64,000 bases of DNA from an uncultured bacterium. GTDB lineage: Bacteria > Babelota > Babeliae > Babelales > Vermiphilaceae. The stretch is from positions 1-64,000 of the forward strand of contig OY969699.1 in assembly GCA_963702025.1 (NCBI GenBank). The letters run 5' to 3'. Positions 1 to 57,855 of this stretch are shown one piece after another (position 1 is the stretch's first letter; the number at the start of each line of letters is the position of its first letter). Below the pieces are notes generated by a model. The model was not told the DNA's origin. It did no database searches and worked only from the letters and a program-made list of their open reading frames with translations. Position numbers and translations under genes: made by a program.

Positions 1-1138
1 GCGGCATATACGATAGTTTTTTAATAATCTGATCAATGGCCAGATTTGCTCTTTGTCGGCTTAAAACCGGCAATCCTTCGATTAGCCGGTCGCAGACATC
101 GAACACTTGCTCTTGATCATCAAAAGCTAGCAACATGAGTAATGCCTCAGGATTGGATTCGGCAGCTTTTTCGAGATATTTTTTTGTTGCGCGGGCACGA
201 ATAATTCGGGCACGGGAAACATCAAACTTCTCACTTTCCAATTCATTGATGCCCAAAGTCCCCATGATCATACAAGCTCGTTGTTGTAATTCGGGATAAT
301 CGGACTGGTGTGCAACACGTTCAAGCGCCTTGAGCGCGCCACTTTGCTTGAGATAAGTAAGCGCCGATTTGTTAGATCCATAGAACGCATAAAATTCAGG
401 CCGGCAAGCGATGAGCTCAGCCCAATCGGTTACCTGTTCAAGTGATTGATAGTCATTATTATCAGCATTTTTATTGATAAAATAGCAGCCGGCAGGAACA
501 GATGCCGTGGCAATAGCCTCGTTTTTTATTTGTTCCAGTTGTTCCGGATCATGCTGCGCAAGATTATCAAGCTTTTGGTGATAGAGCTGGCAAAGTTTAT
601 CAGTATGATCTTTATAGTATTGTTCAGCGGTGGCCACAAGCGTGTTATCAATTTCAAATTTATTGTTTTTTACGGTAATTGTCGGCTGCATAGTATTTTT
701 TACGGTAAACAATAATTGATGGGCAAGTAATTCTCGCTGAACGTCATCAATACAAGAATTTTCATGGACAAATTCAGGATTTGTTAATAATGAAGCATGG
801 CTAAACATACACCGTTCGTCACCAAACATTGCTCCTTTAAGCGTAAGATCAAGCGCTTGCGGATCTTTTTCAAGAATTGCTTTTTTTGCTAATTGTTGAA
901 TAGCGGGAAGATAAGGGTTATCATGATTGGTTGCCAGAGCGAGCATAGTGCTCAGTGAATCATCATCGAACATGCCATTTTGCGTTTTTGCGCATGCTTG
1001 ATCAAATAAATCTTGCTGCTGAATATCAAGCGGATACCGTTGCCGATCAATTAACCGCTGCAGCTCCTGATTGGACCGCATTGCGTAGGATGAAACAAAA
1101 GAAAGAACCAAAGATAAAGTTATCAAATAACATTGCAT
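1..1138 (-). CDS. Secreted helical-repeat (Sel1-like) protein, 3' end beyond window
   Basis: Manual translation is open from ATG 1138 to the window edge: MQCYLITLSLVLSFVSSYAMRS... with signal peptide; KKYLEKAAESNPEALLML resembles a Sel1 repeat. Absent from the ORF track because it has no stop in the window. Confidence 0.7.
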   Translation of the reverse strand, partial: MQCYLITLSLVLSFVSSYAMRSNQELQRLIDRQRYPLDIQQQDLFDQACAKTQNGMFDDDSLSTMLALATNHDNPYLPAIQQLAKKAILEKDPQALDLTLKGAMFGDERCMFSHASLLTNPEFVHENSCIDDVQRELLAHQLLFTVKNTMQPTITVKNNKFEIDNTLVATAEQYYKDHTDKLCQLYHQKLDNLAQHDPEQLEQIKNEAIATASVPAGCYFINKNADNNDYQSLEQVTDWAELIACRPEFYAFYGSNKSALTYLKQSGALKALERVAHQSDYPELQQRACMIMGTLGINELESEKFDVSRARIIRARATKKYLEKAAESNPEALLMLLAFDDQEQVFDVCDRLIEGLPVLSRQRANLAIDQIIKKLSYMP

Positions 1139-1214
1139 ACAAAAAATCCCTATTATAAAGAAATAATTGTTGCAATGGTAAGTGCAAATGAGCAAAAATG
1201 CAAGTCTTCTTAGT

Positions 1215-2342
1215 TTATTCTGCCCACCATGATGAAATTTGCTCAATCAAATGTTGCATGGTAGATTTTGCTTCTTGCGTTTTTATATGTTTTTGCAATA
1301 ATTCTTTAATTTGTTTTGCATAGGTGCAGCGCCAGCGCTCAGGGTCATTAATATGATAATATCGCTCGCAATCTTGATTAACAACAGAAACAATATATTC
1401 CCATGCACTCATATTCAAGGCAGAATCTTTTTGCAATGGATCGGCGCCGTTATCTAATAATAACTGAATAATTTTAAGATCAAGCTCCTTAGGAATGTTC
1501 CCATAAAAAGAGGTCAATTGGTCCATTATTGCAAGTACTAATGGCAATCTTCCCTTGGTTGTTGCTTCATTTACATGTGCACCATGCCGTAATAAATAAG
1601 CAACCAAATATGGACTGTGAGTATCGATTGCCCAATGCAATGGAGCAAATCCACTTTCATCTTTTGCTGTATAACTTAGAAAATTTATAGTGGAATAGTT
1701 GAATGCGGTTTTCTTATTTTTCATATCATCAAGCGTTTTGCCAAGATCCAGCAAAACATTGAAAGTATTTGTTGTATCTGCTTTGATGCCCGTAAGTTTA
1801 TCCACACGCGCTTCAATGAGCACATTTATTAATCTTTTTACAAAAGCCGATTTTTTTTCCAACGGTTGTGCCGGATCAGTTATCACTTTTTGAATAATAG
1901 AGTCTAATAATGCTATAATTTTTTCATTGGTTCTAAAATTGTCAATCAACCAAACATAGTTAACAAGCACTTCAAGGTGTCTCTTTTGCAACAAACTCAA
2001 ATCGGGATCTTGTTCAAGCAAAAAAGTAATGATCTTTAATTCTTTTATCTCTTTTTGTTTAACGTAATCTCGAGTGGCGCTGTCCAAATCTTCAAGGGCC
2101 ATTGTTAAAGCTGTTTGCGTACCACCTTCAAAAAGGGTATTAATATCTACCAATCTGTTGCCCTGCGCATCTGGCGTCAGCAACCGAGTTATTTCCGGAA
2201 GATCGGCCCGTTCAATAGCAATATATAACTTGGCAGCATCATCTTCCATCAGGGCAACTACCGGTTGCTCCGGTGGCATTTCCATACTGATAGAATTTGC
2301 CGCATTTATTATAAGCAGCACCAAAAATAATCTTTTAGCCAT
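1215..2342 (-). CDS. Secreted ankyrin-repeat protein
   Basis: GFAPLHWA, GRLPLVLA, LLLDNGADP ankyrin motifs; signal peptide MAKRLFLVLLIINAANSISME. Confidence 0.85.
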   Translation of the reverse strand: MAKRLFLVLLIINAANSISMEMPPEQPVVALMEDDAAKLYIAIERADLPEITRLLTPDAQGNRLVDINTLFEGGTQTALTMALEDLDSATRDYVKQKEIKELKIITFLLEQDPDLSLLQKRHLEVLVNYVWLIDNFRTNEKIIALLDSIIQKVITDPAQPLEKKSAFVKRLINVLIEARVDKLTGIKADTTNTFNVLLDLGKTLDDMKNKKTAFNYSTINFLSYTAKDESGFAPLHWAIDTHSPYLVAYLLRHGAHVNEATTKGRLPLVLAIMDQLTSFYGNIPKELDLKIIQLLLDNGADPLQKDSALNMSAWEYIVSVVNQDCERYYHINDPERWRCTYAKQIKELLQKHIKTQEAKSTMQHLIEQISSWWAE

Positions 2343-2349
2343 AATCTTC

Positions 2350-3329: not shown

Positions 3330-3345
3330 ATATTTTTTGGTAAAG

Positions 3346-3396: not shown

Positions 3397-3936
3397 ATGA
3401 AAAAATTATTAATACCGCTGTATGTTGCGGCAGCATTATTTCCTTTGAAATTTGTATCAATGGAAAAACCCAAAAAAGTGCACCGATATACGCAAGAATT
3501 AGGAATGCCAATCAAGGAAGAAAAAATCGATTGTAGGGCAAAACTAACTATAAAAAATGAAACCGGCCATACTTGCTTGGTTTTAATTGGTTCTACTGTA
3601 TTTACACTTCCTGCAGGCATAATTGGAGAATTAGGAATCTCGGAAAATCTTTCATTTTACAAAACAACCGCTAATTTGGCATACGCAGAGGCAAAGGTGA
3701 AATATAAACATAGCCAGAAGCCTGACCTGATTTTGAAAATATTTAGAGATGCAACTGAAACACCTATTTATCGAACAGAATTTTCAACGTTCCCCTTTGG
3801 AGAAGAGAAAAATACTCACGCCAAAGAAGTGGAAACTGAGGGCAGCATTGACGTTACAATTATTTTAAGAGGATCAGTGATGCAGGATTCAGTGGTTACG
3901 GCAAATGGGGATAACACTAAATGTACGATTCAATAA
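3397..3936 (+). CDS. Secreted hypothetical protein
   Basis: MKKLLIPLYVAAALFPLKFVSMEK signal peptide; AAGGA RBS. Confidence 0.7.
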   Translation: MKKLLIPLYVAAALFPLKFVSMEKPKKVHRYTQELGMPIKEEKIDCRAKLTIKNETGHTCLVLIGSTVFTLPAGIIGELGISENLSFYKTTANLAYAEAKVKYKHSQKPDLILKIFRDATETPIYRTEFSTFPFGEEKNTHAKEVETEGSIDVTIILRGSVMQDSVVTANGDNTKCTIQ

Positions 3937-4298: not shown

Positions 4299-4763
4299 AT
4301 GAAGAATAATACAAAATTTTTATTAGTCTTGCTTACTGTTTTTGCAGTTGCCCCAATGGCATATTCTATGGAAAAAATAAAGGGAATATTCAAAAGTGAA
4401 AAAGAAAAGAGCCAGGAAAAAGAAGCAAAACTCTATGCCAAAAGACCTCATGCTTCAGAAGAAGTCTATAGGTTTATTGACGGGTCTGCTTGGTATGAAC
4501 GTGGCGCAAATCCTAAAATTAGGTTAAATGACAACTCTACATCTTTTGAAGTCTTAGGGCTTCCTACAAGTGCTACTACAAAACAAATAGAAGAACGATA
4601 TGAACAACTTATCGATTATACATTTAAATTAGGTAGTAATAAAAATAGTTACGAAAGCGAAGAATTAAGACTAGAATATGAATATCTTATCGGCTGGGCC
4701 GCATATCAGGCTAAAAAAGAAGCTGTTGCAATGCAGCTTCGCTCAGCAATACGTCATAAGTAA
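4299..4763 (+). CDS. Secreted protein with degenerate DnaJ-like J domain (no HPD)
   Basis: SFEVLGLPTSATTKQIEERYEQL resembles J-domain helices I-II; signal peptide ending AYS-ME. Confidence 0.65.
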   Translation: MKNNTKFLLVLLTVFAVAPMAYSMEKIKGIFKSEKEKSQEKEAKLYAKRPHASEEVYRFIDGSAWYERGANPKIRLNDNSTSFEVLGLPTSATTKQIEERYEQLIDYTFKLGSNKNSYESEELRLEYEYLIGWAAYQAKKEAVAMQLRSAIRHK

Positions 4764-5286: not shown

Positions 5287-5835
5287 ATGTATAAAAAATA
5301 TTTTTTTTTGATTTCGGGGCTCATACCAATTTCTTTAGCCGGAATGCTTGAAGCGCCGCCCGCTGAGGATCTTTTTGAGCAGTTGGACATGATGCCGTAC
5401 AGTTCTTTAAACCTTGCAGCAGCTTATGAAGAAATGGGGTTACCTCCCCCGGATATCATGAAAATCAAATCTGAACCCAATGATAATGGTTTTAATTACG
5501 AGAAAGAAACGCACAAGAAAATAGGAAAAAAACAACTAGATAAAATCTATTTATGCTCGGCACCGGAGTGCCTAAAAATATTCAAAACACCTAAAGAACG
5601 AGCAAATCATTTTGCTCGTTGGCATTGCAAAGAAAAACCATTTATATGCAACTATGGAAACTGCTCAAAAAAATACTCAACCAAATCTTCTTTAAATCTT
5701 CATAACATGCGAATTCACGGCGAAAAAAAATTTCACTGTCTCACTCTTTTATGCGCGGCAAAATATGCGGTCCGAGGTGATTTAACGCAACATATCAAGC
5801 GCAAGCATAAAATAAAAACCCCATCGCGAGTTTAA
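5287..5835 (+). CDS. Secreted protein with three tandem eukaryote-type C2H2 zinc fingers
   Basis: Three C-x4-C-x12-H-x4-H fingers with KEKPF/GEKKF linkers; N-terminal hydrophobic leader. Confidence 0.85.
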   Translation: MYKKYFFLISGLIPISLAGMLEAPPAEDLFEQLDMMPYSSLNLAAAYEEMGLPPPDIMKIKSEPNDNGFNYEKETHKKIGKKQLDKIYLCSAPECLKIFKTPKERANHFARWHCKEKPFICNYGNCSKKYSTKSSLNLHNMRIHGEKKFHCLTLLCAAKYAVRGDLTQHIKRKHKIKTPSRV

Positions 5836-9349: not shown

Positions 9350-9721
9350 TTAACCGTAAGTTGCCGGCCGGGATCTTTGCTTTGGAGCAAAAGCTGGCAT
9401 TGTAGAATCATTTTTTTGCTTGGCAACTAAAACGGCCGAAACTCCTATTATTGTTCCGGCAGCAAGTCCAAATTTTCCTGGATGTCTTTGCACAAGAGCA
9501 TATGCTGCCGATGCACTGTTTTTTAAAGCATTTTTTATATCTTGAGCAGTCAGATTGCTTACACTGCAAGAAAGACGCCCTAATCCAAAGCCGAGTGCAG
9601 CGGTAGTTGCTATTGAAATATAAGGATGTTCTGCAACCAATTCTTCAAAACTACGCTGCATCGCAGTTGAGTGCAAGCTCAATATAATTAAGAATAAACT
9701 TAATGTACTTACTATTTTCAT
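9350..9721 (-). CDS. Small secreted membrane-anchored protein, paralog 1
   Basis: Signal + AMQRSFEE..HPY + Gly/Ala hydrophobic segments. Confidence 0.75.
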   Translation of the reverse strand: MKIVSTLSLFLIILSLHSTAMQRSFEELVAEHPYISIATTAALGFGLGRLSCSVSNLTAQDIKNALKNSASAAYALVQRHPGKFGLAAGTIIGVSAVLVAKQKNDSTMPAFAPKQRSRPATYG

Positions 9722-9761
9722 AATATTTCTTTCAAGTATTTTAAAAATTTTTTTATAAATA

Positions 9762-10016
9762 TTATCCGTCAGAAGGCGGATTTGGTCGTTGAAAAGGAAA
9801 AAATCTTGGCATTGGTGAACTATAAGTAAACTTACTTGCTTTCTTTTTTGAAAGCAGCGTTAACAATTTACTGATACCTAACCCGCCTGTTGTCGCAGTT
9901 ACTATTGTAACATAAGGATGACGCGCAACGAATTCTTCAAAACCACGCTGCATTGCATTCGATCGAATGCTCAGTGTGAGTAATGATAGTAAAGTTATTG
10001 TGCTTAGTATTTTCAT
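9762..10016 (-). CDS. Small secreted membrane-anchored protein, paralog 2
   Basis: SNAMQRGFEEFVARHPY; N-terminus shared with neighbours. Confidence 0.7.
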   Translation of the reverse strand: MKILSTITLLSLLTLSIRSNAMQRGFEEFVARHPYVTIVTATTGGLGISKLLTLLSKKKASKFTYSSPMPRFFPFQRPNPPSDG

Positions 10017-10051
10017 AAATATTTCTCTAAAATAATTGAATATTTTTTAGG

Positions 10052-10453
10052 TTAACCTGCGTTTTGTGTTTCCCATCTTCTCAGTGGTGCTGATCGCGGC
10101 ATTGGTAAAATGTATGAATTTTCTTGAGAAACTATTTTATTGGTAACCATAACTCCTAATGCGCCAAGTAATGTTCCGACAAAAATTCCTGCGATGCCTC
10201 GATTGCTCTGTATCACCGAATGCGCTGCATGTGCGCTTTTACCAATAATATTTTTAATGTCACTAGCAGTTGGCACGATTCCATTTTGATAACAATATAA
10301 TGCCGTTGCGCCGGCAGCTGCTCCGGAAGTTGCTGCGGTGAGTGTTGCAAGGTAAGGTTGACGCTGAACTATTTTTTCAAAACCACGTTGCATTGCATTC
10401 GATTGCATGGTCAGCGTGAGTAAAATCAAACTTATTGTGGAAAATATTTTCAT
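10052..10453 (-). CDS. Small secreted membrane-anchored protein, paralog 3
   Basis: SNAMQRGFEKIVQRQPY. Confidence 0.75.
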   Translation of the reverse strand: MKIFSTISLILLTLTMQSNAMQRGFEKIVQRQPYLATLTAATSGAAAGATALYCYQNGIVPTASDIKNIIGKSAHAAHSVIQSNRGIAGIFVGTLLGALGVMVTNKIVSQENSYILPMPRSAPLRRWETQNAG

Positions 10454-10855: not shown

Positions 10856-11758
10856 TCAAGCAAAACTCGGCGGATCATCAATTTCATCAGGAGCAGATGA
10901 TGGCGCCTTTGGCCCAAAAATTTTATTTTTTACTGCACTTACTGCCGGCATTAATTTTCCATTTTTATGTGCATACAAGGCTGCCGCAGCGAGTGTGGCC
11001 AAACCACCGATAGCAATAGCCACTTTTTTATTTTCTTTGATGGTGCTGCCCAGTGCATATATCATCCGCATTGGCATGGATGGCAGATTTTTTTTGATTT
11101 CTGCAAGCACTTCTTGATCATTATATTCATTCACTGCAACACCCCATCCATATAAAGTGCTTTGCGCATCTAATTTTCTTTTAATATCATGAAGTGCTTG
11201 CGTACATTTTCGCATCAGCGGATACCGCCATTCAAAATGACAAAACTTGGAAGTTTGTTGGTTAAGCGCTTCTTCAAGCGAGTAGCCTTTGATTAATTTG
11301 TAAAATGCGCATGCAAAACCGGTGCGATCTGCACCTGCCACGCAATGAACTAAGATCGGCTCATTTTTCGGATCACTGAGCACATTGTATATTGCTTTTA
11401 CTTGTTCCTTTGTAGGTAACTTATTACCATTAAGCGTAACAGTAGTAATAATATCTCCGGCAACTGCTTTTTCTGCGTCAAACCAGATCCCATAGCCTTC
11501 GCGTAAATTCAAAATGGTTTTAATCTGTTTTTCATCAATCACCTTTTTCAAATCTTTTGGCGATAATGTTTTTGAACGATACAATGCGCCTTCTTGCACA
11601 GTTGCAAAATTATTATGGAACCAGGTGGCAGGATTTAATGCTGTTGGCATACAATAATGACGAATATAGGAAGGAATATTTTTGAACGTACTCATACCAG
11701 AAGTGGTGGCAGCAACCATGCTGAAGCTGAGAGCAAGAATGCGATACCAATTTTTCAC
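10856..11758 (-). CDS. Secreted dual-specificity/tyrosine phosphatase with C-terminal membrane anchor
   Basis: LVHCVAGADRTG P-loop (CX5R); NFATVQEGALYRS; signal peptide. Confidence 0.88.
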   Translation of the reverse strand: MKNWYRILALSFSMVAATTSGMSTFKNIPSYIRHYCMPTALNPATWFHNNFATVQEGALYRSKTLSPKDLKKVIDEKQIKTILNLREGYGIWFDAEKAVAGDIITTVTLNGNKLPTKEQVKAIYNVLSDPKNEPILVHCVAGADRTGFACAFYKLIKGYSLEEALNQQTSKFCHFEWRYPLMRKCTQALHDIKRKLDAQSTLYGWGVAVNEYNDQEVLAEIKKNLPSMPMRMIYALGSTIKENKKVAIAIGGLATLAAAALYAHKNGKLMPAVSAVKNKIFGPKAPSSAPDEIDDPPSFA

Positions 11759-29187: not shown

Positions 29188-29201
29188 TATTTGCTCCCTT
29201 T

Positions 29202-33767: not shown

Positions 33768-33857
33768 AGAAAAAGAATATTGACTTGTTGATTTATGAAC
33801 AAATACCATTGAACTATAAATTTTATGAATCGATATTTTTTTTAACAGAGGAAAAAA

Positions 33858-41401: not shown

Positions 41402-41429
41402 TACTAATTTCCCTTTTTTGTATTTCTAT

Positions 41430-42606: not shown

Positions 42607-42663
42607 CAATTGTTATACTGTTTTAAAAGTTTTACTCAACTCTACATATGTAAAGGAATCATC

Positions 42664-43314: not shown

Positions 43315-43433
43315 CGTTAAAATTTTCTGAAAGTATAAAGAAAAAGGCTCACTTTTAAGTGGGCCCTTTCTTTTCTTAATAAATAAACTATCCTGCATTA
43401 TTGATCTTATAATCTTCAGCTTGGTATATACAT

Positions 43434-44624: not shown

Positions 44625-44722
44625 TGGAGCCATTTTCAAGCAGTCTTGACTTTCATTGGAATTATGCCAAACTGAATAATAACATAAAGAATTATACGCC
44701 TAATTGTCTAAATGGAGAATTT

Positions 44723-45595: not shown

Positions 45596-45818
45596 GCTCT
45601 ATAAGTGCAAAGCATTTACTCTTTATGATTTAAACATTTGAGTTTTCATATTAATTAAGTGTCGCACCATAAGGAAATACAATATTAATGCGTTATTAGG
45701 CACTTGGTAATGCAGGTAAAAGACCGTCTAAGGCTCGTAAAGACATAGAAATATTTTGCTTTCCCTTTAAACTGCTACCTGGTTCTGAACACTTCAACCA
45801 TCCAGCAGGTATACATTC

Positions 45819-47353
45819 ATGAAAGCAATTCTCATCGCACGTGTAAGCACGGAAGAACAAAAAGAAGCCGGCAATTCATTACCAGCTCAAGTGATGCGAC
45901 TGGAGCGCTACTGCCAAAATAAAGGCTTTGCAATCATTAAAACATGCAGTTTTGGTGAAAGTGCTTATTCAGATAATCGCGATGAGTTTGATCGCATTCT
46001 TGATTTCATTATTGAGCAAAAAGAAAAGATTGTAGTCTGTTGTGATAAAGTTGATCGCTTAACTCGAAATGTATTTGATAAGCGTGTTTCGTTTCTTTAT
46101 GAAAAAGCACTCAAGGATGAACTTGAATTACATTTTGTATCCGATGGACAGATTGTAAATAGCAGAATCTCTGCCGTTGAAAAATTCCAATTTAATATCA
46201 GCTTAGGATTGGCACGTTATTATTCAGATGCCATTAGCGATAATATTAAGCGCGCCATTGAACAAAAGCTCCGCAAAGGAGAATGGCCCGCCAAAGCATC
46301 TTTTGGCTATCGCAATATCACGCGTGAAGATGCAAGAAAGATATCATTGTGGATGAATTTCAAGCAGCTATTGTGCAAAAGGTATTTGAACTCTATGCAT
46401 CGCGAGCATTTTCCATGGAATTACTGCGCGTTAAATTAAATAAAGATCATGGCTTAAAGTGGTCCAAAGGATTTACCGATAAGCTGCTTAAAGATAATTT
46501 TTATCATGGCATCATGGTATGGAATGGCAAAAGCCATCCACATCGCTATCCTCCTATTATCTCCAAACAACTTTTTGATCAGGTGCAAGCTGTGAAAACA
46601 GGATTTAATAAAAAGAAATTTAAATATGCAGGCAAGCCATATATCTATCGTGGCATGATTCGCTGCGCCGATTGTGGCATGTCTATTGCCCCTGAAAAAC
46701 ACAAGGGCTTTGTGTATTACCATTGCACGCAATACAATGGCAAGCATGATGCGAAATGGCTACGAGAAGAAGAGATTATCCGCCAAATAAGCGCTATCTT
46801 TAAGCGTCTTGAGATTCCCAAGGATGTGCTTAAACAAGTAACAGAAACGATAAACCAGACCAATCAAGATCAAATAGACTTTCATAATACCCACTATGAT
46901 AAGCTCATATCAAAGCAACGAGATCTATCTAAAATGCTCGATAATTTATACCTGGATAAATTGAAAGGGAGAATTACTGAGAGCGAATATGACAAATTTT
47001 ACACATCATTATATGCAGATGCCCAAGAAGTTACTACCCAACTTGCTCAATTACAACAGGCAGAAAATGATTATTATATCACTGCAAAATACGTTCTGGA
47101 TCTAGTAAGCCGAGCTCACGAACTTTTTATGAGTTCTGAAGTGGAAGAAAAGAGGCAGTTATTGAGGCTCGTACTTCAGAACCTAAGGCTTGAAGGTGAA
47201 AACCTGCTCTACGACGCAATAAAACCGTTTGATTTACTACTGGAATGTTCTGATCGTCAAGGATGGTGTAGCCTGCAGGACTATTTCCGCAACACTATCA
47301 TTGAAGATAGCATAGTATTTGATATCAGCCCATTTCTAACCGCATGCGCATAA
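45819..47353 (+). pseudogene. Large serine recombinase, single frameshift near 46332
   Basis: ARVSTEEQ, DKVDRLTRN, GYRN, Zn ribbon RCADCG..YYHC; restoring one base gives REDGKKDIIVDEF. Confidence 0.88.
47256..47276 (+). repeat. Candidate att site (right)
   Basis: Direct repeat of 39600-39620; similarity falls off after it. Confidence 0.6.
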
Positions 47354-47404
47354 AACGATTATAAAAATAAAAAAAATAACATCGTGAAAATAAGTATTGA
47401 CTTG

Positions 47405-47422
47405 TTAACCAAATTTAGTAAA
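47405..47422. promoter_or_regulatory. Palindromic operator next to TTGACT -35
   Basis: ttaaccaaatttagtaaa; second copy at 48513-48530. Confidence 0.65.
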
Positions 47423-47453
47423 TTTACTACCCGATACCTAAGGAGTAAGGACT

Positions 47454-47756
47454 ATGGATAGATTATCATTCGGCGAAACGGTTCAAGATCTTCGAAGAAA
47501 AAAACGATGGACTGTTAAAAATTTTATTGAGCATCTTGATCTGGATGTTTCACCTGCCTATATTACCAAGATTGAAATTCATGGCGAAATACCGAATCCC
47601 AATATTATTTGCAAGATAGCTGATGCATTTGATATGGATTATGAAGATCTTTTATCTACTGCCAAAACAGATAAAGTGAAATATTTTAAAGAATCTTTAG
47701 AAAAAAAATATGTACGAGCTGCGGGCTTATATCGAATACAACGGGAGATCAAATGA
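47454..47756 (+). CDS. XRE/Cro-C1 HTH repressor
   Basis: FGETVQDLRR, VSPAYITKIE..P. Confidence 0.88.
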   Translation: MDRLSFGETVQDLRRKKRWTVKNFIEHLDLDVSPAYITKIEIHGEIPNPNIICKIADAFDMDYEDLLSTAKTDKVKYFKESLEKKYVRAAGLYRIQREIK

Positions 47757-48490
47757 ACCATAATCATATTGCTAAAATCGCTTCTGCTTTTTTTGCAGAT
47801 CAGTGTTTTGAAATTTATAAACACGCAATGGGTTGGCAAAACCCGGAAGAAATGATCGTAAATGTTATGGAGATATATGACAATGTTATTTATCCCGAAT
47901 ACGAATTCTCTTTAGATATGAGTACTGATCTTGGCGAATATGAGAACCAAAAAGTATTAGGCAAAACAATGCCAAAAGAAAAGATCATCGCCATTGACCC
48001 GTCAATAGCACCTGCAACTAATGATCCACGATTTCCATTTACCATGGCACATGAAATAGGCCATGCGCTTCTTCATCAAAGCGAAAATATGCCATTGTGT
48101 CGGACCACCGCAAGCACTTTTGCCAATAAGCATGACCCACTTGAACGAGAAGCTAATGCCTTTGCTGTGCAATTATTAATGCCTTCTGATCTTGTACAGC
48201 ATCGGTTTCAAGAATATTATGGAAGACGATCATATCCATATGTAGGCCCACGAATGTATTGGATAAACGGAGAGAAAGTTTATATTCGCTCCCTGCTTCA
48301 TTTATGCCTTAAATTAGCAGCGCCATTAACACGTTATTTTTCGAACGTTTCTAAGGCAAGCCTTGCCTATACTTTACACAACATCGGGCTTATTGCTAAC
48401 CAAAAGAATGAAAAAATTGGGCCAAACGTTCTTTTCCTTCCAGAATCTTTTCTGAGCCCTGATTGCCATGATTTTTGCGATACAGAATGA
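47753..48490 (+). CDS. ImmA/IrrE family metallopeptidase
   Basis: FTMAHEIGHALLH, EREANAFA..LLMP; ATGA overlap with the HTH gene. Confidence 0.9.
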   Translation: MNHNHIAKIASAFFADQCFEIYKHAMGWQNPEEMIVNVMEIYDNVIYPEYEFSLDMSTDLGEYENQKVLGKTMPKEKIIAIDPSIAPATNDPRFPFTMAHEIGHALLHQSENMPLCRTTASTFANKHDPLEREANAFAVQLLMPSDLVQHRFQEYYGRRSYPYVGPRMYWINGEKVYIRSLLHLCLKLAAPLTRYFSNVSKASLAYTLHNIGLIANQKNEKIGPNVLFLPESFLSPDCHDFCDTE

Positions 48491-48512
48491 AATATATTTT
48501 TTTGTCAACTTA

Positions 48513-48530
48513 TTAACCAAATTTAGTTAA
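48513..48530. promoter_or_regulatory. Second operator copy
   Basis: ttaaccaaatttagttaa imperfect palindrome. Confidence 0.65.
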
Positions 48531-48542
48531 AAGGGTGTACTT

Positions 48543-48695
48543 TTGAAATACGATGCAGCAAAGAAAAATATTATAATCAATCATAATGAAATACCATTTT
48601 ATATCACCTACGAAGGAACCGATGGAAAAAAGGAGTACGTACTAAAGCCAAACAGCAAACGCTCAAAACTATCACTCAATAAAAAAGAATACTAA
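48543..48695 (+). CDS. 50-aa small protein
   Basis: TTG start after AAGGG; MKYDAAKKNIIINHNEIPFYITYEGTDGKKEYVLKPNSKRSKLSLNKKEY. Confidence 0.5.
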   Translation: MKYDAAKKNIIINHNEIPFYITYEGTDGKKEYVLKPNSKRSKLSLNKKEY

Positions 48696-48795
48696 GTAAA
48701 GCCAGCCAGCAAACGATTACGCGTTAATCAAGTAGCCAGCGAGCCAGCGATTGATCCTTACGGATTTAAAGCTGGCTTTATTTTTTGGTAATGAG

Positions 48796-48966
48796 ATGCC
48801 AACAAAAAACAATCACCAAACAACATTCCCAAGCAATTTTCCATCACAAGTAGATACCAGGCCGCTTATTGATCTATTTGCGCTCCTGCTTGAATGGGAA
48901 ATGAACGAAAAAGAAGAAACCGAACAGGAGCAGCCAAGCATTGTTGAAAGGAGCCAGAACCATTGA
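48796..48966 (+). CDS. Small hypothetical protein
   Basis: ORF track; LIDLFALLLEWE helix. Confidence 0.4.
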   Translation: MPTKNNHQTTFPSNFPSQVDTRPLIDLFALLLEWEMNEKEETEQEQPSIVERSQNH

Positions 48967-49061
48967 GATTAACACGCAGTCTTAGAAAACAAGCAAAAAT
49001 AAATTAATAAAAAAGCCACTTAGGCGTTGAAGCTAAGTGGCTCAAAATAGAGAGTTTTATT

Positions 49062-51455
49062 ATGACTAATTATAGCGTAAAAAGCCGCGATTTAAAAGCA
49101 GAATGTGCGCAACATATGGCAGAAAATGGCTTGCCAATAACTGAGCCAATTATTGCTGATGATAAGATTCATCGCTATTCAGCAGACAACAAAAAGAATG
49201 AAAGAGATGAATGGTATATTGCGCATGAGGGGATTTCAACAAAAGGCAATCCCTATTTAGTATGCTCATATGGCTCATGGAGCGCGGGTTCTAAGCATGA
49301 ATTTAAATCATTCAATCAATCCAACCCATTCGATGAGCATGAGCAAAAAGAATTACATACCTGGGTAAAAAGAAAAAAAGAAGAAGCTGAAAATCAATTA
49401 AAAGACGCACAGAATGATGCGGCAGCAGTAGCCACTATCATATGGCAAAAATCGGCTGATACGCCTCTTTATGATGAATGTTTGGATTATGCAAAAGCAA
49501 AAGGGATTACTCCCGGCAAAATAAAATATGGGACCAATCCCAATGGATTCCCGGCAATAATTATCGATATAAGAAATACAGCAAATGAAATACGTTCGTT
49601 GCAATTTATTTCGATGGGCAGCGATAACAAATCATATAAAACATTTTTAAGCGAGGGAGAGAAAAGGGGCAATTTCCACATTATTGGAGAAGCTCTTGAT
49701 GGAGCACCAATTTATCTTGTTGAAGGCTATGCAACCGGCGCAAGCGTTTATGCAGCTACAAATATGGCAACCGTTGTAGCCTTTGATGCGGGCAACATAG
49801 ATCCCGTTGTGGAAAATATAAAAAAGAAGTTTCCAAACAGCGCAATAACAATTGCCGGAGATGCGGATGAAATTGGCAGAAAAAAAGCATCTGAAGCAGC
49901 AAAAAAATTTGGATGCCGTATTGCTTTCCCAGAATTTCCTGAAGATAAAAAGAAAGACCATACCGGCAAAGATTACAAAGATTTTAATGATTTGCATCAG
50001 ATGTGTGGACTCAATGAAGTTCATGAACAACTTCAAAAAGCAGTTCCCATCATCACTGCGCAAGATGAACTAAGAGCATTAGCAGATACCTTAACGGAAA
50101 AAGAAGATCCGTGTGCATATTTTAATGTATCGGATCTTCCCGAGCCATTGAGAGATTATATCGCGACGCTCTGTCAAACCACTGATGCGCATCCAATCAT
50201 GATAACCTGCTCGGTATTAGCAACCGTCTCGGGATTTTTAGGAACGCGCGTATACATTCCAAAAGGATCTTATTATCAAACACTCTATCCCAATTTGTGG
50301 TTGCTCTGCGTCGCAAAAAGCGGCCAGCATAAAACTACTTCTTTAAATAATGGCGGTGAAATTGCATTTGAAAAGCAAGCGCAGATATTTGATGTCATCA
50401 AGTTTCTTGAATCGGAGCTTAAAGAGACTGATGATCAAGCAAGAAGAAGTGAATTGATGCAAGCAATACTCAATGAATCTTTAAAGAGTGTCATATTGCC
50501 AACCAGAACATCCGTGGAAGGATTAATCCAGCATCTGGCTAAAGGCCATCAGGGCATAATTTTTGCCAGTGAATTTGGCGCATGGCTTCAAAATTTGGCA
50601 AAAAATCACAACACTGATTTAAAGGGGATTCTCACCGATTTTTTTGATGTCCCCACAAGTTGGCGCAATCTCACAAAAACACAAGGTGATGATATTGTAT
50701 GCAGGCCATATCTTTCCATTTGTGGGGTTTCAACGCTGGCATGGTTAAGGGGCAATCTTGATCCAACAGATGTAGCAACTGGTTTTTTTGCGCGCTTTCT
50801 CATTTTTGCGCCGCCTCATTTTGATTCAATCCCATCGGGCTTGCCCAAGCCCACTCAAATGGCACAGCAGACTGCCAAAGATAATTTTAAAAATGTTCTG
50901 GATACTATCTTACAAGCGATTGGGCAAGAGCGAAGATTGATTCTATCCGAGGATGCTCAGATAGTTTTTGACAATCCCGTTGATAACAAAGGATTGCATC
51001 AAAAGATCTATGTTATTGCCAAATCATATGATGATAAGTGCCAAGAAATATTAGCCCCGTATCTGAAGCGATGGAGCCCTTATTTACTTAAACTGGCAAT
51101 AATCATGCAACTTTTTGATGACCCCGAATCAACTGAAATAGAACCCAAAGCACTTTTGGCAGCTCTATCTATTCTGGTTCCTGCAATAAAATCAACCGCC
51201 TTTCTCTGGGCAAGTGAACTAGGAGAATCGGAACATCAGCGCAAATGCCGCATTGTTCTTGAGTGGATATGTCAAAAAGTTAAAGATACCGGCAATCCAA
51301 TTAAAAGGCAGAGCATCCTCGCATCAAAAAAATTAGCCGGCGGGGTTACCGAATATGATTATGTATTATCGTCTTTGGTTGAGCAAGGGAAGCTTAAATA
51401 CGATGAGCAAAAACCAAAAAATGAATCGTTATATAGCCCAAAAGAAAATAGTTGA
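49062..51455 (+). CDS. TOPRIM primase fused to DUF3987 (helicase-like) domain
   Basis: LVEGYATG, VAFDAGN, AGDAD, DFNDL; AKSGQHKT P-loop variant, SEFGAWL, GFFARFL. Confidence 0.88.
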   Translation: MTNYSVKSRDLKAECAQHMAENGLPITEPIIADDKIHRYSADNKKNERDEWYIAHEGISTKGNPYLVCSYGSWSAGSKHEFKSFNQSNPFDEHEQKELHTWVKRKKEEAENQLKDAQNDAAAVATIIWQKSADTPLYDECLDYAKAKGITPGKIKYGTNPNGFPAIIIDIRNTANEIRSLQFISMGSDNKSYKTFLSEGEKRGNFHIIGEALDGAPIYLVEGYATGASVYAATNMATVVAFDAGNIDPVVENIKKKFPNSAITIAGDADEIGRKKASEAAKKFGCRIAFPEFPEDKKKDHTGKDYKDFNDLHQMCGLNEVHEQLQKAVPIITAQDELRALADTLTEKEDPCAYFNVSDLPEPLRDYIATLCQTTDAHPIMITCSVLATVSGFLGTRVYIPKGSYYQTLYPNLWLLCVAKSGQHKTTSLNNGGEIAFEKQAQIFDVIKFLESELKETDDQARRSELMQAILNESLKSVILPTRTSVEGLIQHLAKGHQGIIFASEFGAWLQNLAKNHNTDLKGILTDFFDVPTSWRNLTKTQGDDIVCRPYLSICGVSTLAWLRGNLDPTDVATGFFARFLIFAPPHFDSIPSGLPKPTQMAQQTAKDNFKNVLDTILQAIGQERRLILSEDAQIVFDNPVDNKGLHQKIYVIAKSYDDKCQEILAPYLKRWSPYLLKLAIIMQLFDDPESTEIEPKALLAALSILVPAIKSTAFLWASELGESEHQRKCRIVLEWICQKVKDTGNPIKRQSILASKKLAGGVTEYDYVLSSLVEQGKLKYDEQKPKNESLYSPKENS

Positions 51456-51726
51456 AACAGTTGAAAAGAGTTGAAACAAGAATCAACTTTCAAAGCGCCG
51501 ATCTGAAGCGCATTAATAACAATTTTAATAGGAAGTTGAAAAATTGAAAGAAGAGGAAGGCGAAACCGCTCGCCCTGAGCTGGTCGAAGGGTGTGAGCCA
51601 AATAAAAATCAGAGCCCGGATTTCTTCAACTTTTCAATCGCTATCAATTCTATATGCCGGACATTCGATCAAAAGCACCAATTAAGCGGTTGAATGATCA
51701 CCCAACTATCTTCAATCGTTTCAACT
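51451..51726. repeat. Iteron-like GTTGAA direct and inverted repeats (candidate origin)
   Basis: GTTGAAA at 51451, 51460, 51470, 51535; inverted TTCAAC copies near 51625 and 51720. Confidence 0.6.
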
Positions 51727-51738
51727 AAGGAGAACCAA

Positions 51739-52224
51739 ATGAGCACTCTTAAAGAACATACAAGAAACTTTGATAAAGCATTCTTTTTGGAATCATTTCC
51801 CGATAACAATAAGCTCAAACCAGCTGTAAAAAGACCGCCTTCCATTCCTGCTAAAATTGATAATCAAATCAAAGCACCTACTATTGTTAAACTTGCGCCT
51901 GTAATCCCCGCAAAACGAGAAGACTCAGCTCTTGAAACACAATCAAAATGGAGCACAGAAGATCAAGCCTTAATTGATTTGTTCCACAAAAATAAAAGCC
52001 GTTTGCCGCTTAAGCCCTATATCTTAACATATAAAGATGGGTATCTTGAATTCCCTTTACATGTGAATTATCCGGCCGAATGGTACACTAAGCTTGAAGA
52101 ACAAATTACGCAAGGGCCTCAAGGAGATCGCGTACAAAATGGGCTTTTGCAAAGAGATTTAAAAAAATTAACAGAGCATTTAGGATTGCTCAAAAATTCG
52201 GAGGTAATCAATGAGCGAAAATAA
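51739..52224 (+). CDS. Hypothetical protein
   Basis: AAGGAG RBS; overlaps the next gene. Confidence 0.6.
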   Translation: MSTLKEHTRNFDKAFFLESFPDNNKLKPAVKRPPSIPAKIDNQIKAPTIVKLAPVIPAKREDSALETQSKWSTEDQALIDLFHKNKSRLPLKPYILTYKDGYLEFPLHVNYPAEWYTKLEEQITQGPQGDRVQNGLLQRDLKKLTEHLGLLKNSEVINERK

Positions 52225-52864
52225 AATCACAACTAAAACTACAATAGAACAAGCATGCCGAGAGAAGTGGCAAGAGCGTAAAACTGTTAATTCTATCACA
52301 AAAGAAAAAAATATAACAAAAAGATGGAATCCTCTTCTAGGAAATTCTTGGCGCGACAATAAACCGCATCCTGACGCACTAAAAGATCTGGCAAAGAGAA
52401 TGCGTGCATGGGCACAAAAAGATACATCGTTACGATTTGACGATTTCCTTGATGAAGAGAATGTTCCGACAAGTACCTATTATACGTGGCGCGATGAATG
52501 CCGAGAATTAAAGGATGCGCATGAATTTGCAATTCGCAGACTAGCGTCACGCCGTGAGAAGTTGGCTTTCTTTAAGCAGGCTGACAAAGAAATATTTTTG
52601 AAAACGCAACATATGTATGATCCGAAATGGGATAAAGAAGTTAATCAATATGCTAAGAGTCTGCGACTTGAGGAAGACGTTACTCCTGGTAAGACAAAGT
52701 TCATCGTAGTACATTCTAATGTGTGGGCACCAGAAAATATAGAAAATGCTCCAAAATATCTCTCTGATAATTTGGATGCCGAAGGAAAAGAATATTTGCG
52801 TGAAACTGGCATGGATAAAGATATTGGGGATCTTAGTGATTTCAGAAAACCAAAAAATATTTAA
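52211..52864 (+). CDS. Putative terminase small subunit-like protein
   Basis: HTH-like F.DEENVPTSTYYTW..ELKDA, helical middle and IFLK motif; position after primase and ori. Confidence 0.45.
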   Translation: MSENKITTKTTIEQACREKWQERKTVNSITKEKNITKRWNPLLGNSWRDNKPHPDALKDLAKRMRAWAQKDTSLRFDDFLDEENVPTSTYYTWRDECRELKDAHEFAIRRLASRREKLAFFKQADKEIFLKTQHMYDPKWDKEVNQYAKSLRLEEDVTPGKTKFIVVHSNVWAPENIENAPKYLSDNLDAEGKEYLRETGMDKDIGDLSDFRKPKNI

Positions 52865-53887: not shown

Positions 53888-54721
53888 ATGGTATTCAAAA
53901 AGAAGCTGCTTTTTAATCTACTAATCATAGCAATTCCAAATGTATGCTTATCAATGACCTCCGAGAATGCTGCAATAAGAAAAAAGGCGATAATTATTGG
54001 CGCAAGTTCAGGGATGGGTAGAGAAGTTGCAAAACTATTAAGCAAAGATGGGTATGAAGTGGGGCTCGTTGCTCGGCGCACAGAATTACTCAAATCCTTG
54101 CAATCAGAGTTACCAACAACTTCACATATCAAACAAATTGATATTGCCAGTTCTCATGCGCGCGAACAATTACAAGAATTAATAACTCATATGAAGGGCC
54201 TTGATCTTTGCGTCATCAGCATTAGCGCAAATTGTGATAATCAAAATGAAGGCGCAGATCATTGGGCAAGCAAAGAAAGAACTATTAATGTTGATGGAAA
54301 AGGATTTATTGCGCTTGCAGATTTAGTATTAGAGTATTTTAAAAAGCAAAATCATGGGCATTTAGTAGGCATTTCATCCACCAGTGGCCTGCGCGGCTCT
54401 GCCGCAACTCCGGTTTATTCAGCAATGAAATCCGGCATATCTTGCTATATGGAAGCGCAATGGAATTATATGGCTCAAAATAACTATAATATCCACATAA
54501 CCAGTGTGGTCCCCGGTTGGGTCGCCATTGAATACGCTCCGATGGGAACCGATCCGGCAGCTTATTGGGAAATTTCGGTTGAACAGGCCGGCAGAGAAAT
54601 TATGGCAGGTATTAAAGCACAAGAAAAGATGGTGTATGTGCCGCGCAAAGTCTGGCTTGTTGCATTACTTCTTAAATACTTGCCCGATTGGGTTTATAAC
54701 AAGTATTTAAATTGGTTGTAA
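53888..54721 (+). CDS. SDR family oxidoreductase with N-terminal leader
   Basis: IIGASSGMG, YSAMK. Confidence 0.9.
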   Translation: MVFKKKLLFNLLIIAIPNVCLSMTSENAAIRKKAIIIGASSGMGREVAKLLSKDGYEVGLVARRTELLKSLQSELPTTSHIKQIDIASSHAREQLQELITHMKGLDLCVISISANCDNQNEGADHWASKERTINVDGKGFIALADLVLEYFKKQNHGHLVGISSTSGLRGSAATPVYSAMKSGISCYMEAQWNYMAQNNYNIHITSVVPGWVAIEYAPMGTDPAAYWEISVEQAGREIMAGIKAQEKMVYVPRKVWLVALLLKYLPDWVYNKYLNWL

Positions 54722-54730
54722 TATGGCTTT

Positions 54731-55789
54731 TCATTTCCAGAAATTATTTAACTGATATACCACAAATATTGCACTATGATCCGATGCAAATAATCGTTTA
54801 TGCGGTTGTTTGCAAGAGCCAAGAGGCAGCAGTTGTAAATCCGTAGAATATTCTCCTATATGCGAAACCCACAAATTACTTTTCATCATATTTGGATTAT
54901 GGAAAATTACATCCAGATAATAGGCCTTCTCAAAATCACCATCAGCAGTGATTGGATTTACGCGGGGATGATCCTCATATCCCATAAATGTGGTGATGGA
55001 GCCTGCAGTTTGGGTATTTTTACGCGAATCGCACACATAAACAGCCGCATCATATATCGCATAGGCATTTAAATCTCGCGGATAGTGGAAATTTCTATCG
55101 CCTGCTGATATCCAATACCCGTTTATTTGTTGTAATAAACTGAGCTCTAATTGGCTCGATAACAAACGAGGATTAATAATTCCTGTCGGATCCTCATCAT
55201 GTGCAAAATGGCTATTAAAAATTGCAATTTCTTTGTTGTTGGCAAGAAAAATAAGTGTTGCTCGTTGTAATGCTTTGGGAAATGCACTTTTCCAAGCGCC
55301 CCACGTTTGGGAAGGAACAACTGGCGTATCAGAATACCAGAGCATATCAGTTGATTTAAGAGCAAAAGCATCTTTTATAAAACCGATCACCAACCCCTCT
55401 TGAATATTAGATGCGTTATTTTCAAGATTATCCCCGGTTACGGTGTTAAATCCAACAATAGTATAATTGACAAGCATATTCTGCAAATCGAGTAATTGCT
55501 CGTGAGTTATTTCTTGCACTGCAAAAGCATCTGCACAAGAAAGCAACTTGCTCACTGCATATTTTCTATCTTTCCAAAGATGATTTTCATTATCAAGACC
55601 GCTTAATTGAATGTTGTAGCTAAGAAATTTGATTTGCTGGTTAACAGAATAATGATTGTCAAACTCTGTTTGTTGTTCTAACTGATTTCGTACTATCTTA
55701 GGGAATTTACTATGATTTGTTATATGAGCAGTGCTTGCAAAATTAAATGTGCTGAATAGAAAGAATCCAGTAATGAATTTATTTTTCAT
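54731..55789 (-). CDS. Secreted endonuclease/exonuclease/phosphatase family protein
   Basis: SYNI, VQE, NSHF, GDRN, SDH. Confidence 0.85.
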   Translation of the reverse strand: MKNKFITGFFLFSTFNFASTAHITNHSKFPKIVRNQLEQQTEFDNHYSVNQQIKFLSYNIQLSGLDNENHLWKDRKYAVSKLLSCADAFAVQEITHEQLLDLQNMLVNYTIVGFNTVTGDNLENNASNIQEGLVIGFIKDAFALKSTDMLWYSDTPVVPSQTWGAWKSAFPKALQRATLIFLANNKEIAIFNSHFAHDEDPTGIINPRLLSSQLELSLLQQINGYWISAGDRNFHYPRDLNAYAIYDAAVYVCDSRKNTQTAGSITTFMGYEDHPRVNPITADGDFEKAYYLDVIFHNPNMMKSNLWVSHIGEYSTDLQLLPLGSCKQPHKRLFASDHSAIFVVYQLNNFWK

Positions 55790-55804
55790 AAAAAACCTGT
55801 TGTT

Positions 55805-56638
55805 TTAATTTATTAATTTTATTCGGCATAATGGACATGAAGAATGAGTTTCAAACCATTTGTTAAGACATTCATTACAAAATGAATGATTACAAGTAGT
55901 AGTTATTTCCGGTTTTGTATCGTAGCAAATAGGACATTCAGAAGTTTCTTGTTTCTGGTCCTGTTGCTTTCCAGTGAAAATTTTATCGTGATATTTCGCA
56001 TCAAGTGCAAAATTTATTTGTTGTAGGTATTCAGGAATTGTTACTTTTTGCTGTTGTCGACCATTATGCTTTTCATTCAAATCAACACCCGCTTGTAAAA
56101 TCATATCTATAATTTCTTGCTCACCGTTTTTTAATGCTAAAACTAACGGATGATCTTCTATATAGAAAGAAAATATGCCTTTTTTCAAAGCGCCTGCATT
56201 CAGAAATAGCTTTGCCATATCATTATTTTTACGATTGAGCGCAGATGTCACATGCAGACTCCCGCATTCATTTCCTTGAGAAAGAAAAAATGCGACAGCT
56301 TTTTCTTTGTTCTCTATTGTTGCACACCATAGTGGAAGCTTACCTTCCGCCAAAGCACTTTGCATTGCGCAAACGACTTCAAACCCGGTTTGATCATGGG
56401 TATCTTGCGCTTGTAGTTCAAGAGCTTCTAATAAAATCTCTTTTTTCTTTGTTTCTAAGCTTGATTTGCCAATAAGATAAGATTTATGGGAAAGAGTGCC
56501 ATTACAACTTTTTGTTGTATCTATAATACTCATTACAGCGTCGACGCTCCGCATGAGAGGTAAGGGCTTTCGCATGTTCATTGTTATCATATTGAGTGGA
56601 CAGAAGAAGAAGAAAATTACTAACAGATTAATGTACAT
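55805..56638 (-). CDS. Secreted ankyrin + C3HC4 RING finger protein
   Basis: CPICYD...CNHSFCNECLNKW....CPLCR; ankyrin-like repeats; leader peptide. Confidence 0.88.
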   Translation of the reverse strand: MYINLLVIFFFFCPLNMITMNMRKPLPLMRSVDAVMSIIDTTKSCNGTLSHKSYLIGKSSLETKKKEILLEALELQAQDTHDQTGFEVVCAMQSALAEGKLPLWCATIENKEKAVAFFLSQGNECGSLHVTSALNRKNNDMAKLFLNAGALKKGIFSFYIEDHPLVLALKNGEQEIIDMILQAGVDLNEKHNGRQQQKVTIPEYLQQINFALDAKYHDKIFTGKQQDQKQETSECPICYDTKPEITTTCNHSFCNECLNKWFETHSSCPLCRIKLIN

Positions 56639-56673
56639 TCCGATCCTTAAGATAATATAAAGTCCTAATAAAT

Positions 56674-57855
56674 TTATTCTTGAATGAGTGGTTTGTCGGT
56701 GAAAAACAATGATAAACGATCAGTGAGCTTTTTGAATTCTCTCTTATCAAGTTCTTCTAATTCTTGCGCAGTCATTGCTGGATCAAGCGGCAAAAATGTT
56801 CCTCCAAGCGTTGCATAAGAAGCAACTCCTTGAGGGTAATCAGAGGAAACTGCGAGCGATTTTGGAAACATAAGCACAATCTCTTCTGCATTATTCTGTT
56901 TTACTTTTGCATAAAACATGTAATCCATATGTTCTTTGCCAGCATCCTCATTCAACACAATAAGATGCCCTCGTATAGGAATCATACTTGCATCGCTATT
57001 AAGCTCTTCGCTGCCCATGCCGGTACAATTAAAAATAATATCTTCTTTCATTTCATTAAATGAAGATACATTTCCTATTTCAATGGCAATGCCAAGCCGT
57101 GCAACTTCATCATGCAATTGCTGCATAAGCTTTGCAGTATCCATAAAATATGTCATGAATTTTACAAAGTTCTCATGCCGCACACTATTGCCAAAATCAA
57201 GAACAACCGTTTCGCGTGGTGGGATTATGCCTTCTTCTTCAAGTCCTTCAAAACCAGAATACATACCATCCATGCAATATATTGGCAAAAATCTTACCGA
57301 CCCTTGCCTAAGATAAGGATGAGTGCCAGCATCAACGGATTGGTAGATTTTAAACGTTTCAAATACCATTTTCTTGTGTTGTTCTTTTTCTGTACCTGCC
57401 ATAGTGGTGCTATCAAGCGCAAAACAGCCTGGTGCGCGCCATGAAGGAAGATCATAAAGATCTTTGGTTATAATTTTACTTACTGAATAACCGCGACGAG
57501 CTAATTCAATTGCTACTGTCAACCCCATGCAGCCAGAACCAATAACACAAATTGGTTTGTTCAAGACTTGAGCATGATTTTCTAAAAGCTTAATGGCATG
57601 ATTGATCGAACTGAATAACGTTGACCAACCAAATCCTGCATGCCCATAACAATGTATAATCCGCTTTTGGTTAATTTGTTCAAAAGAAATATTTACACCA
57701 TCATGCCGTTTTGGGCGTGTGCAGGTGATATACTGCAAAATAGTCTTTTCAGAAATGATCGGCGGTTTTAAATAAGCAATTTGATCAGTGCAGAATAATT
57801 CCATGGTGGTCAGTAGTCCAAAAAATAATATGCGATTAAAAATACCGAAATTCAA
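56674..57855 (-). CDS. Circularly permuted D-amino acid oxidase-like protein, secreted
   Basis: HCYGHAGFGW before VIGSGCMG; FNCTGMGS; PIRG. Confidence 0.8.
   Translation of the reverse strand: MNFGIFNRILFFGLLTTMELFCTDQIAYLKPPIISEKTILQYITCTRPKRHDGVNISFEQINQKRIIHCYGHAGFGWSTLFSSINHAIKLLENHAQVLNKPICVIGSGCMGLTVAIELARRGYSVSKIITKDLYDLPSWRAPGCFALDSTTMAGTEKEQHKKMVFETFKIYQSVDAGTHPYLRQGSVRFLPIYCMDGMYSGFEGLEEEGIIPPRETVVLDFGNSVRHENFVKFMTYFMDTAKLMQQLHDEVARLGIAIEIGNVSSFNEMKEDIIFNCTGMGSEELNSDASMIPIRGHLIVLNEDAGKEHMDYMFYAKVKQNNAEEIVLMFPKSLAVSSDYPQGVASYATLGGTFLPLDPAMTAQELEELDKREFKKLTDRLSLFFTDKPLIQE

Follow-up and report, generated by a model that had tools for sequence, protein, structure and literature searches.

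A methionine at the predicted mature N-terminus of leader-bearing, eukaryote-like proteins in a Dependentiae genome

We analyzed the first 64,000 bases (the window) of contig OY969699.1, together with the rest of the genome that holds it (G000; a single contig of 1,596,033 bases, 95% complete). In this genome a signal-peptide-like leader is very often followed by methionine at the predicted first mature position (+1), and this motif sets cargos that are eukaryote-like and lineage-specific apart from envelope proteins. We find the feature to be genuine, strong and specific to the lineage. The initial annotation of the window listed 15 leaders ending in a small residue followed by Met and proposed that cleavage leaves a Met that could sort effectors or protect them in the host; all 15 junctions are present, and the overall interpretation is partly supported. 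The organism is likely a Dependentiae (Babelota) parasite of protists: "Candidatus Dependentiae" is the sole taxon named among the best 120 homologues of its signal peptidase I (SPase I; 54% identity), homologues of a short-chain dehydrogenase/reductase (SDR) in the window carry Dependentiae or TM6 names, and the genome is rich in ankyrin proteins and has matches to ATP/ADP translocases.

Genes were called with a custom caller that picks starts by ribosome-binding site (RBS), codon score and start codon and ignores the leader. Among the 1,536 proteins of at least 70 amino acids, 717 (47%) passed a heuristic for a basic and hydrophobic leader; this signal-peptide-like (SP-like) set is not free of false positives, GroEL and SecA among them. 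Cleavage sites are heuristic predictions, made without SignalP by two predictors that are both blind to the +1 residue. One is an expectation-maximization (EM) matrix over positions -13 to -1, trained on 304 Met-free leaders. The other is a fixed -3/-1 rule score that penalizes Met at -1 and whose weights were set after the logo had been seen; it was used in place of the EM matrix, which was noisy for single proteins. By the rule score, Met stands at +1 in 264 of the 717 SP-like proteins, compared with 7 at +2, 36 at +3, and a background of 5-13 proteins at each offset from +4 to +12. The EM matrix placed Met at +1 in 159 of the 717, with 17 at -1, 40 at +2, 71 at +3, and 6-13 at +6 to +10. 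The enrichment of Met at +1 over background, whose absence would by the initial annotation have counted against its proposal, is therefore present. Met occurs in residues 16-28 of 379 SP-like proteins and in residues 46-58 of 109, with a peak at residues 18-24; among 792 non-SP proteins the corresponding counts are 201 and 177.

Two other sources of this signal were rejected. A method artefact is ruled out by the outgroup genomes (the Chlamydiae G173-G175, and G176), in which 0/68 leaders score Met at +1. Paralogue expansion is ruled out as well, as the motif is spread over 220 of 518 clusters (181 singletons) and the logo is unchanged when each cluster is reduced to one representative.

The consensus around the junction, shared by these 220 unrelated clusters, is [A/G/S]-M-[E/Q]-K-P, with the predicted cut before Met. 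The unselected logo has Ala (35%), Gly (20%) and Ser (17%) at -1, and Leu or Ile are frequent at -3 besides Ala and Ser. After a +1 Met assigned by the rule score, Glu (56%) and Gln (13%) lead at +2, Lys (25%) at +3, and Pro (31%) at +4. Our working Met class, used in the cargo counts, has 315 proteins, 53 of which were added through their -1 and +2 residues; the +2 statistics use the other 262 only. Glu, Asp, Asn or Gln occupies +2 in 191 of the 262 (73%); the corresponding shares are 27% for native starts and 19% for internal Met. Residues that are small, so that methionine aminopeptidase (MetAP) can cut before them, are found in 35 (13%; native starts 33%, internal Met 38%), and bulky hydrophobic residues in 13 (5%; 21% and 26%). 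These proportions agree with the host N-terminal rules that the initial annotation had invoked. In other respects the leaders are those of ordinary Sec/SPase I substrates: they are in frame, are 17-23 residues long (median 19.5), have a basic n-region, a hydrophobic h-region and an upstream start with an RBS, and carry small residues at -3 and -1 as non-Met leaders do. A cut after the Met, exposing Glu or Gln for pyroglutamate formation, was considered and rejected; it would place Phe, Gln, Ser, His or Tyr at -3, and the search of G000 for cyclase families was negative. A second, Met-specific signal peptidase was also rejected, because a single SPase I gene was found (PF10502/TIGR02227), which looks intact, with its Ser and Lys motifs visible.

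The cargo classes were compared by a Pfam scan (E 1e-5 or 1e-7) of the first 420 residues of leader proteins in the first 864 kb (54%) of G000, leaving out GroEL and fifteen proteins that cross locus borders; ankyrins between 464 and 864 kb were counted with our own profile, and categories were assigned by hand. Eukaryote-like cargos (ankyrin, LRR, WD40, RING/IBR, zinc finger, phosphatase, DOT1 and PLA2_B) belong to the Met class in 56 of 73 cases, and envelope or periplasmic families, which include four YVTN-type propellers, in 1 of 26 (Fisher p=3e-11). The contrast that the initial annotation drew between eukaryote-like and envelope proteins thus extends beyond the window. Only 3 of 15 secreted hydrolases and oxidases carry the Met (this set shares two PLA2_B proteins with the eukaryote-like set), so Met is the mark of a cytosol-type subset rather than of secreted proteins in general. 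Among the 124 ankyrin proteins of the genome, 81 fall in the Met class automatically and 99 by a permissive leader-aware scan; Met is at the best rule-score site in 70 of 102. Basic clusters resembling nuclear localization signals occur in 59 of the 315 Met-class proteins compared with 38 of the 402 others. Most of the approximately 260-315 Met-class proteins have no Pfam match. Two adjoining Met-class proteins at L001:9511-12496 combine ankyrin and IBR domains and resemble RBR-type E3 ligases.

Translation of the Met class begins at the leader. A Shine-Dalgarno core precedes 256 of the 315 leader starts and 1 of the 315 internal Mets, a comparison to be read with caution, since the RBS score was among the criteria by which leader starts had been picked; the RBS score at the internal Mets is also lower than that of random internal Mets (p=3e-14). 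Together with the in-frame, canonically built leaders, the near-absent Shine-Dalgarno core rules out an internal start codon, which the initial annotation had named as a finding that would undo its proposal. We regard it as very improbable that the internal ATG is the real start, or a second start giving a cytoplasmic isoform with the leader incidental. In favor of that reading, public gene calls often begin at the internal ATG (P0001), as did our own caller for some genes, and in G151 a cluster of leaderless ankyrin genes begins with Met-Gln or Met-Glu (7 of 10 tandem genes at L140:6453-18234, possibly after loss of the leader). The junction could instead be a historical by-product under little or no selection, formed when a leader was fused onto an old start codon or when an ancestral leader-MEKP cassette was reused, with Glu merely aiding Sec export or cleavage. 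The youth of the cargos fits this account, as a homologue in sampled relatives was found for 13 of 234 Met-class proteins, compared with 62 of 381 non-Met leaders and 316 of 770 non-leader proteins, and Glu is at +2 in 8-14% of non-Met leaders too. One trio of Met-class genes (g1415, g1416 and g1440; G000 1420831-1446487) has no BLAST similarity among its cargos and leaders that are 67-70% identical at the DNA level, making it a candidate for leader reuse. Against a by-product stands the residue after native starts (Lys 14%, Asn 11%, Ser 10%, Ile 9%, Ala 9%, Glu 6%), which differs from that in the Met class (Glu 50%, Gln 13%). Only the three pairs of the trio, among 34,039 unrelated pairs, exceed 65% leader DNA identity, and the mean (0.377) equals that of a column-shuffled null. 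The +2 codons of the Met class match genome codon usage, and the motif recurs in the 220 clusters and in distant families. A relic start codon or a shared DNA cassette as sole cause is ruled out by the native-start profile and the leader-DNA null, and we consider the by-product account as a whole unlikely.

The Met rule is widespread in the Dependentiae but variable between families. In sampled DNA of relatives, Met was at +1 by the rule score in 48/135 SP-like proteins of the sister genome G006, 7/25 in G001, 17/52 in G021, 5/34 in G016, 3/16 in G009, 6/23 in G034, 5/19 in G039, 1/21 in G029 and 0/29 in G036. In regions chosen for their ankyrin genes the counts were 6/12 (G154), 4/15 (G151), 6/10 (G041 and G073), 4/33 (G067), 3/46 (G068) and 0/1 (G166); after start correction, 5 of 7 ankyrins of G166 have a leader plus Met. 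A DNA pattern tuned on G000 was compared with a swapped control over 161 genomes of the phylum and gave 4,748 matches versus 2,142, with 147 genomes exceeding their control and 59 significant on their own (p<0.01). In four outgroup genomes the counts were 137 and 95. Because the outgroup ratio is already 1.44, we call a family positive only if its ratio is clearly greater than about 1.8. Ratios are clearly above the outgroup in families f1 (2.5), f3 (2.2), f5 (2.4) and f11 (3.3) and in further families of one or two genomes (f8, f10, f16, f19 and f20; 2.1-4.3), and are low (1.05-1.5) in f2, f4, f6, f7 and f17. Over the 161 genomes the motif excess correlates with the number of ankyrin candidates (Spearman 0.48, or 0.27 after genome size), with the qualification that kin are not independent and that the swapped control also correlates with ankyrin candidates (0.28).

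The route by which these proteins would leave the cell can be outlined from the gene content of G000. It has a type II secretion gspC-D-L-M-D locus (L016:1535-9997; G000 365.5-374 kb) with a PDZ-bearing GspC and two GspD secretins, of which one has a lipobox-like leader; pilin-type leaders are also present. Two GspE-like ATPases lie apart from this locus, at 420 kb and 835 kb; in one of them the N-terminal domain appears to have been split off. Most of the GspC, D, E, L and M and pseudopilin matches are under the NCBIfam cut-offs, with one GspE above. The duplicated components may reflect two channels for two cargo classes. As TolC, FHIPEP and VirB4 families were looked for in G000 and not found, Met-class cargos would be expected to pass through type II secretion. 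This gene set agrees with that of Babela, for which type II secretion is described as the only system and growth takes place in a vacuole (PMC4378268). We infer from these sequences that the proteins would be exported by Sec, cut before Met, pass through the type II secretin and reach the host cytosol.

In the explanation that we rank first, and to which we give an even chance, the junction makes a host-compatible N-terminus: once exported, the protein would have the start of a native cytosolic protein of a eukaryote, which the host would likely neither trim nor treat as an N-degron. The predicted SPase I cut would leave Met, usually followed by Glu or Gln, as the mature end, where signal-peptidase cleavage would normally expose residues that eukaryotes read as degrons. 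Met would be safe when the next residue is too large for removal by MetAP and is not bulky and hydrophobic. Sec export disfavours basic residues just after the cut. Because the MetAP, hydrophobic-degron and Sec constraints would exclude the rest, Glu, Gln, Asp, Asn and His would be left at +2, which is the observed set. In eukaryotes, Arg, Lys and His are destabilizing at the N-terminus, and so are Leu, Phe, Tyr, Trp, Ile, Asn, Gln, Asp and Glu, as well as Met when the next residue is bulky and hydrophobic; MetAP cuts solely before small residues, and Asp or Glu exposed by signal peptidase on endoplasmic reticulum proteins can be arginylated (PMC11441550). An Arg/N-degron residue would be exposed by 254 of 388 non-Met leaders, and the Met class avoids both degradation traps. 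Acetylation by host NatB may add to the protection and would not be required for it, since NatB is described as co-translational (PMC8761761).

Several observations weigh against a host-compatible N-terminus. That same co-translational action of NatB is one. Lys at +3 and Pro at +4 are position-specific and Glu far exceeds Asp at +2 (56% versus 4%), both beyond what stability alone would call for, and the cut site is a heuristic prediction. About a fifth of the ankyrin proteins of G000 lack the Met, and 10 of 17 Met-less ankyrins would expose a destabilizing residue at the best-scoring site, some of these sites being mispredicted. G068 (f12) has 34 leader-bearing ankyrins, yet its SP-like proteins rarely have Met at +1 (the 3/46 above), and in the ankyrins of G067 (f6) Met is mostly at -3. 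In the ankyrins of G068 the first residue is mostly a different one, frequently Ala or Ser. The ankyrin junctions of these two genomes are stereotyped in another way (ALPA then Ala or Ser in L130-L134 of G068; YA then Ala-Gln in L142-L143 of G067) and may be alternative solutions to the same constraint.

The consensus beyond +2 supports a sorting tag, which we rank second and hold to be possible but clearly less probable than the host-compatible N-terminus. A receptor, which might belong to type II secretion, be a chaperone or be a translocon of the vacuole membrane, would read the mature M-[E/Q]-x-P end and separate host-bound effectors from proteins of the periplasm or vacuole lumen. The four-position consensus is also found in the sister genome (Pro at +4 in 33% of G006), some 700 leader-bearing proteins would use one outer-membrane route, and there are two secretins, two GspE-like ATPases and a PDZ-bearing GspC; the vacuolar, type II-only life of Babela (PMC4378268) and the mature N-termini of exported Plasmodium proteins (PMC10653839) also favor it. 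On the other side, no receptor was identified, positions +2 to +4 are degenerate, and some lineages export many ankyrins without Met. The tag is gained and lost between homologues, being kept in 6 of 19 Met-class pairs automatically and in about 8 on inspection. A strict sorting role is further weakened because the rule is not universal in the phylum. Sorting and host stability can act together. More speculatively still, hundreds of effectors might travel via Sec and type II secretion with the Met-Glu-x-Pro end as a linear address for a dedicated secretin or vacuole translocon, an end that the host would treat as self. If true, this would be the first linear sorting signal for type II secretion and a bacterial counterpart of the mature-N-terminus export of Plasmodium.

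In the window, Met is the best rule-score site in 12 of the 13 listed leaders that were gene-called; the open reading frames (ORFs) starting at 1138 and 10016 were not gene-called and were read directly from the sequence. Three members are unknown proteins in which the leader is followed by Met-Glu-Lys-Pro, at 3397-3936 (plus strand; Met codon 3460-3462) and 15662-16180 (minus strand; Met codon 16120-16118), or by Met-Glu-Lys, at 4299-4763 (plus; 4368-4370). Another unknown protein, at 30788-31432 (plus; 30848-30850), has Met-Asn. Ankyrin proteins with Met-Glu are found at 1215-2342 (minus; 2285-2283) and 42664-43314 (plus; 42721-42723), the latter with a cut site that is ambiguous by score, and a long protein of low complexity, whose C-terminal part weakly matches ankyrin, has Met-Glu-Leu-Pro (13780-15477, minus; 15405-15403); a related-locus search with this last protein found no relative, and an ESM Atlas search with one leader returned nothing usable. 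Three small paralogues on the minus strand (9350-10453; starts 9721, 10016 and 10453) each have Met-Gln-Arg, and an ORF at 1-1138 (minus; 1081-1079), with a frame open to the window edge and no Pfam match, has a 19-residue leader and Met-Arg. The remaining listed members are a C2H2 zinc-finger protein by weak Pfam match, with Met-Leu-Glu (5287-5835, plus; 5344-5346), a GTG-started tyrosine/dual-specificity phosphatase with Met-Ser (10856-11758, minus; 11695-11693), and a GTG-started M48 peptidase with Met-Gln-Lys (44723-45595, plus; 44780-44782). Both the M48 gene and the 42664 ankyrin gene sit within 39146-52864, which reads as an integrated element by labels taken from the sequence (resolvase-like recombinase genes, helix-turn-helix and toxin-antitoxin-like genes, and at 49062 a large ORF that is primase-like). 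An ankyrin and RING protein that the initial annotation had not listed has a leader and probable Met-Asn (55805-56638, minus; 56581-56579). A protein without family match at 22165-23058 (plus; 22237-22239) has the atypical Met-Val and is a possible exception.

The SDR oxidoreductase with Met-Thr (53888-54721, plus; 53954-53956) is a weak member and a local case: only 4 of 98 leader-bearing homologues have the Met. The DAO-family oxidase that closes the annotated range (56674-57855, minus) is not a member: its leader is TTG-started, the Met lies within the leader, and none of 42 leader-bearing homologues has a +1 Met. This leader is common to the Chlamydiae homologues, and a second DAO-like gene with a similar N-terminal domain (17468-18529) has no leader. 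The four leader-bearing YVTN-type beta-propeller genes (27889-35129), our negative controls, and the barrel-like paralogues at 21102 and 27871 lack Met at +1, as the initial annotation had noted for most of the barrels and YVTN proteins of the window. Many normally cytoplasmic enzyme types in G000 have leaders, mostly without Met at +1 (53888-57855 of the window; L004, L006, L091, L093, L095, L101 and L102). They include SDRs, the DAO oxidase, NDK, UDP-glucose dehydrogenase and peroxiredoxin. Seven GNAT acetyltransferases also have leaders; considered as candidates for an N-terminal acetylase of the bacterium's own, they match RimI at best under its cut-off, two being without any match.

The Met junction gives an easy means of predicting which proteins may be host-directed in a phylum that lacks genetics, one that is readily lost because gene callers often begin Met-class genes at the internal ATG and drop the leader. 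It makes testable how bacteria with Sec and type II secretion only run ankyrin, LRR, WD40 and ubiquitin-ligase effectors in the eukaryotic cytosol. If the host-compatible N-terminus is correct, host N-degron rules would be shaping the secretion signal of bacteria throughout much of a phylum.

We found no description of the Met rule in the literature, although supplements and the subscription TM6 genomics literature may hold a prior mention; the word "methionine" is absent from the main texts of PMC6561590, PMC4378268 and PMC12172432. The leaders themselves resemble the canonical Sec/SPase I and type II pathway of the Dependentiae, with an n-h-c organization, small residues at -3 and -1, leader-bearing ankyrins, and a leader share (47%) close to the 44% reported for Chromulinavorax (PMC4378268, PMC6561590). 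The predicted mature ends resemble the eukaryotic NatB set (MD, ME, MN and MQ), to which 73% of them belong, and avoid MetAP-cleavable and Met-hydrophobic starts (PMC8761761, PMC11441550). They would differ from true NatB substrates in that the Met is made by proteolysis in the bacterial periplasm, away from host ribosomes.

Host-bound proteins of Plasmodium provide a parallel from another parasite of a vacuole, in which a cleaved N-terminus separates exported from resident proteins and signal-peptidase cleavage suffices to make the export N-terminus (PMC10653839). The G000 rule differs in being bacterial, in lacking homology and an identified translocon, and in needing no separate maturation protease. 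The Plasmodium export element (PEXEL) has a dedicated RxL motif, which a separate protease cuts at a point downstream of the hydrophobic stretch, and leaves an acidic residue or Gln as the second residue after the cut. The G000 leaders have no RxL motif, and the logo upstream of Met is that of an SPase I site without Arg enrichment, so no PEXEL-type element is present.

The closest system is the Q-rule of the Bacteroidetes, in which Gln at +1 of SPase I substrates is cyclized to pyroglutamate (PMC5837995, PMC10653852). There too a considerable part of the exported proteins has a lineage-specific residue at +1, behind a Sec/SPase I leader of the ordinary kind, and protein stability is the proposed role (PMC5837995, PMC10653852). 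In G000 the residue is Met rather than Gln, which is at +1 in 8% of non-Met leaders; a consensus extends from +2 to +4, and the Met end is proposed to act in the cytosol of the host. The Q-rule covers most exported proteins, whereas the Met rule is limited to eukaryote-like cargos, and a search of the 95% complete genome for glutaminyl cyclases (PF05096, PF04389) found none. The G000 rule works like the Q-rule in fixing the +1 residue but is a different system.

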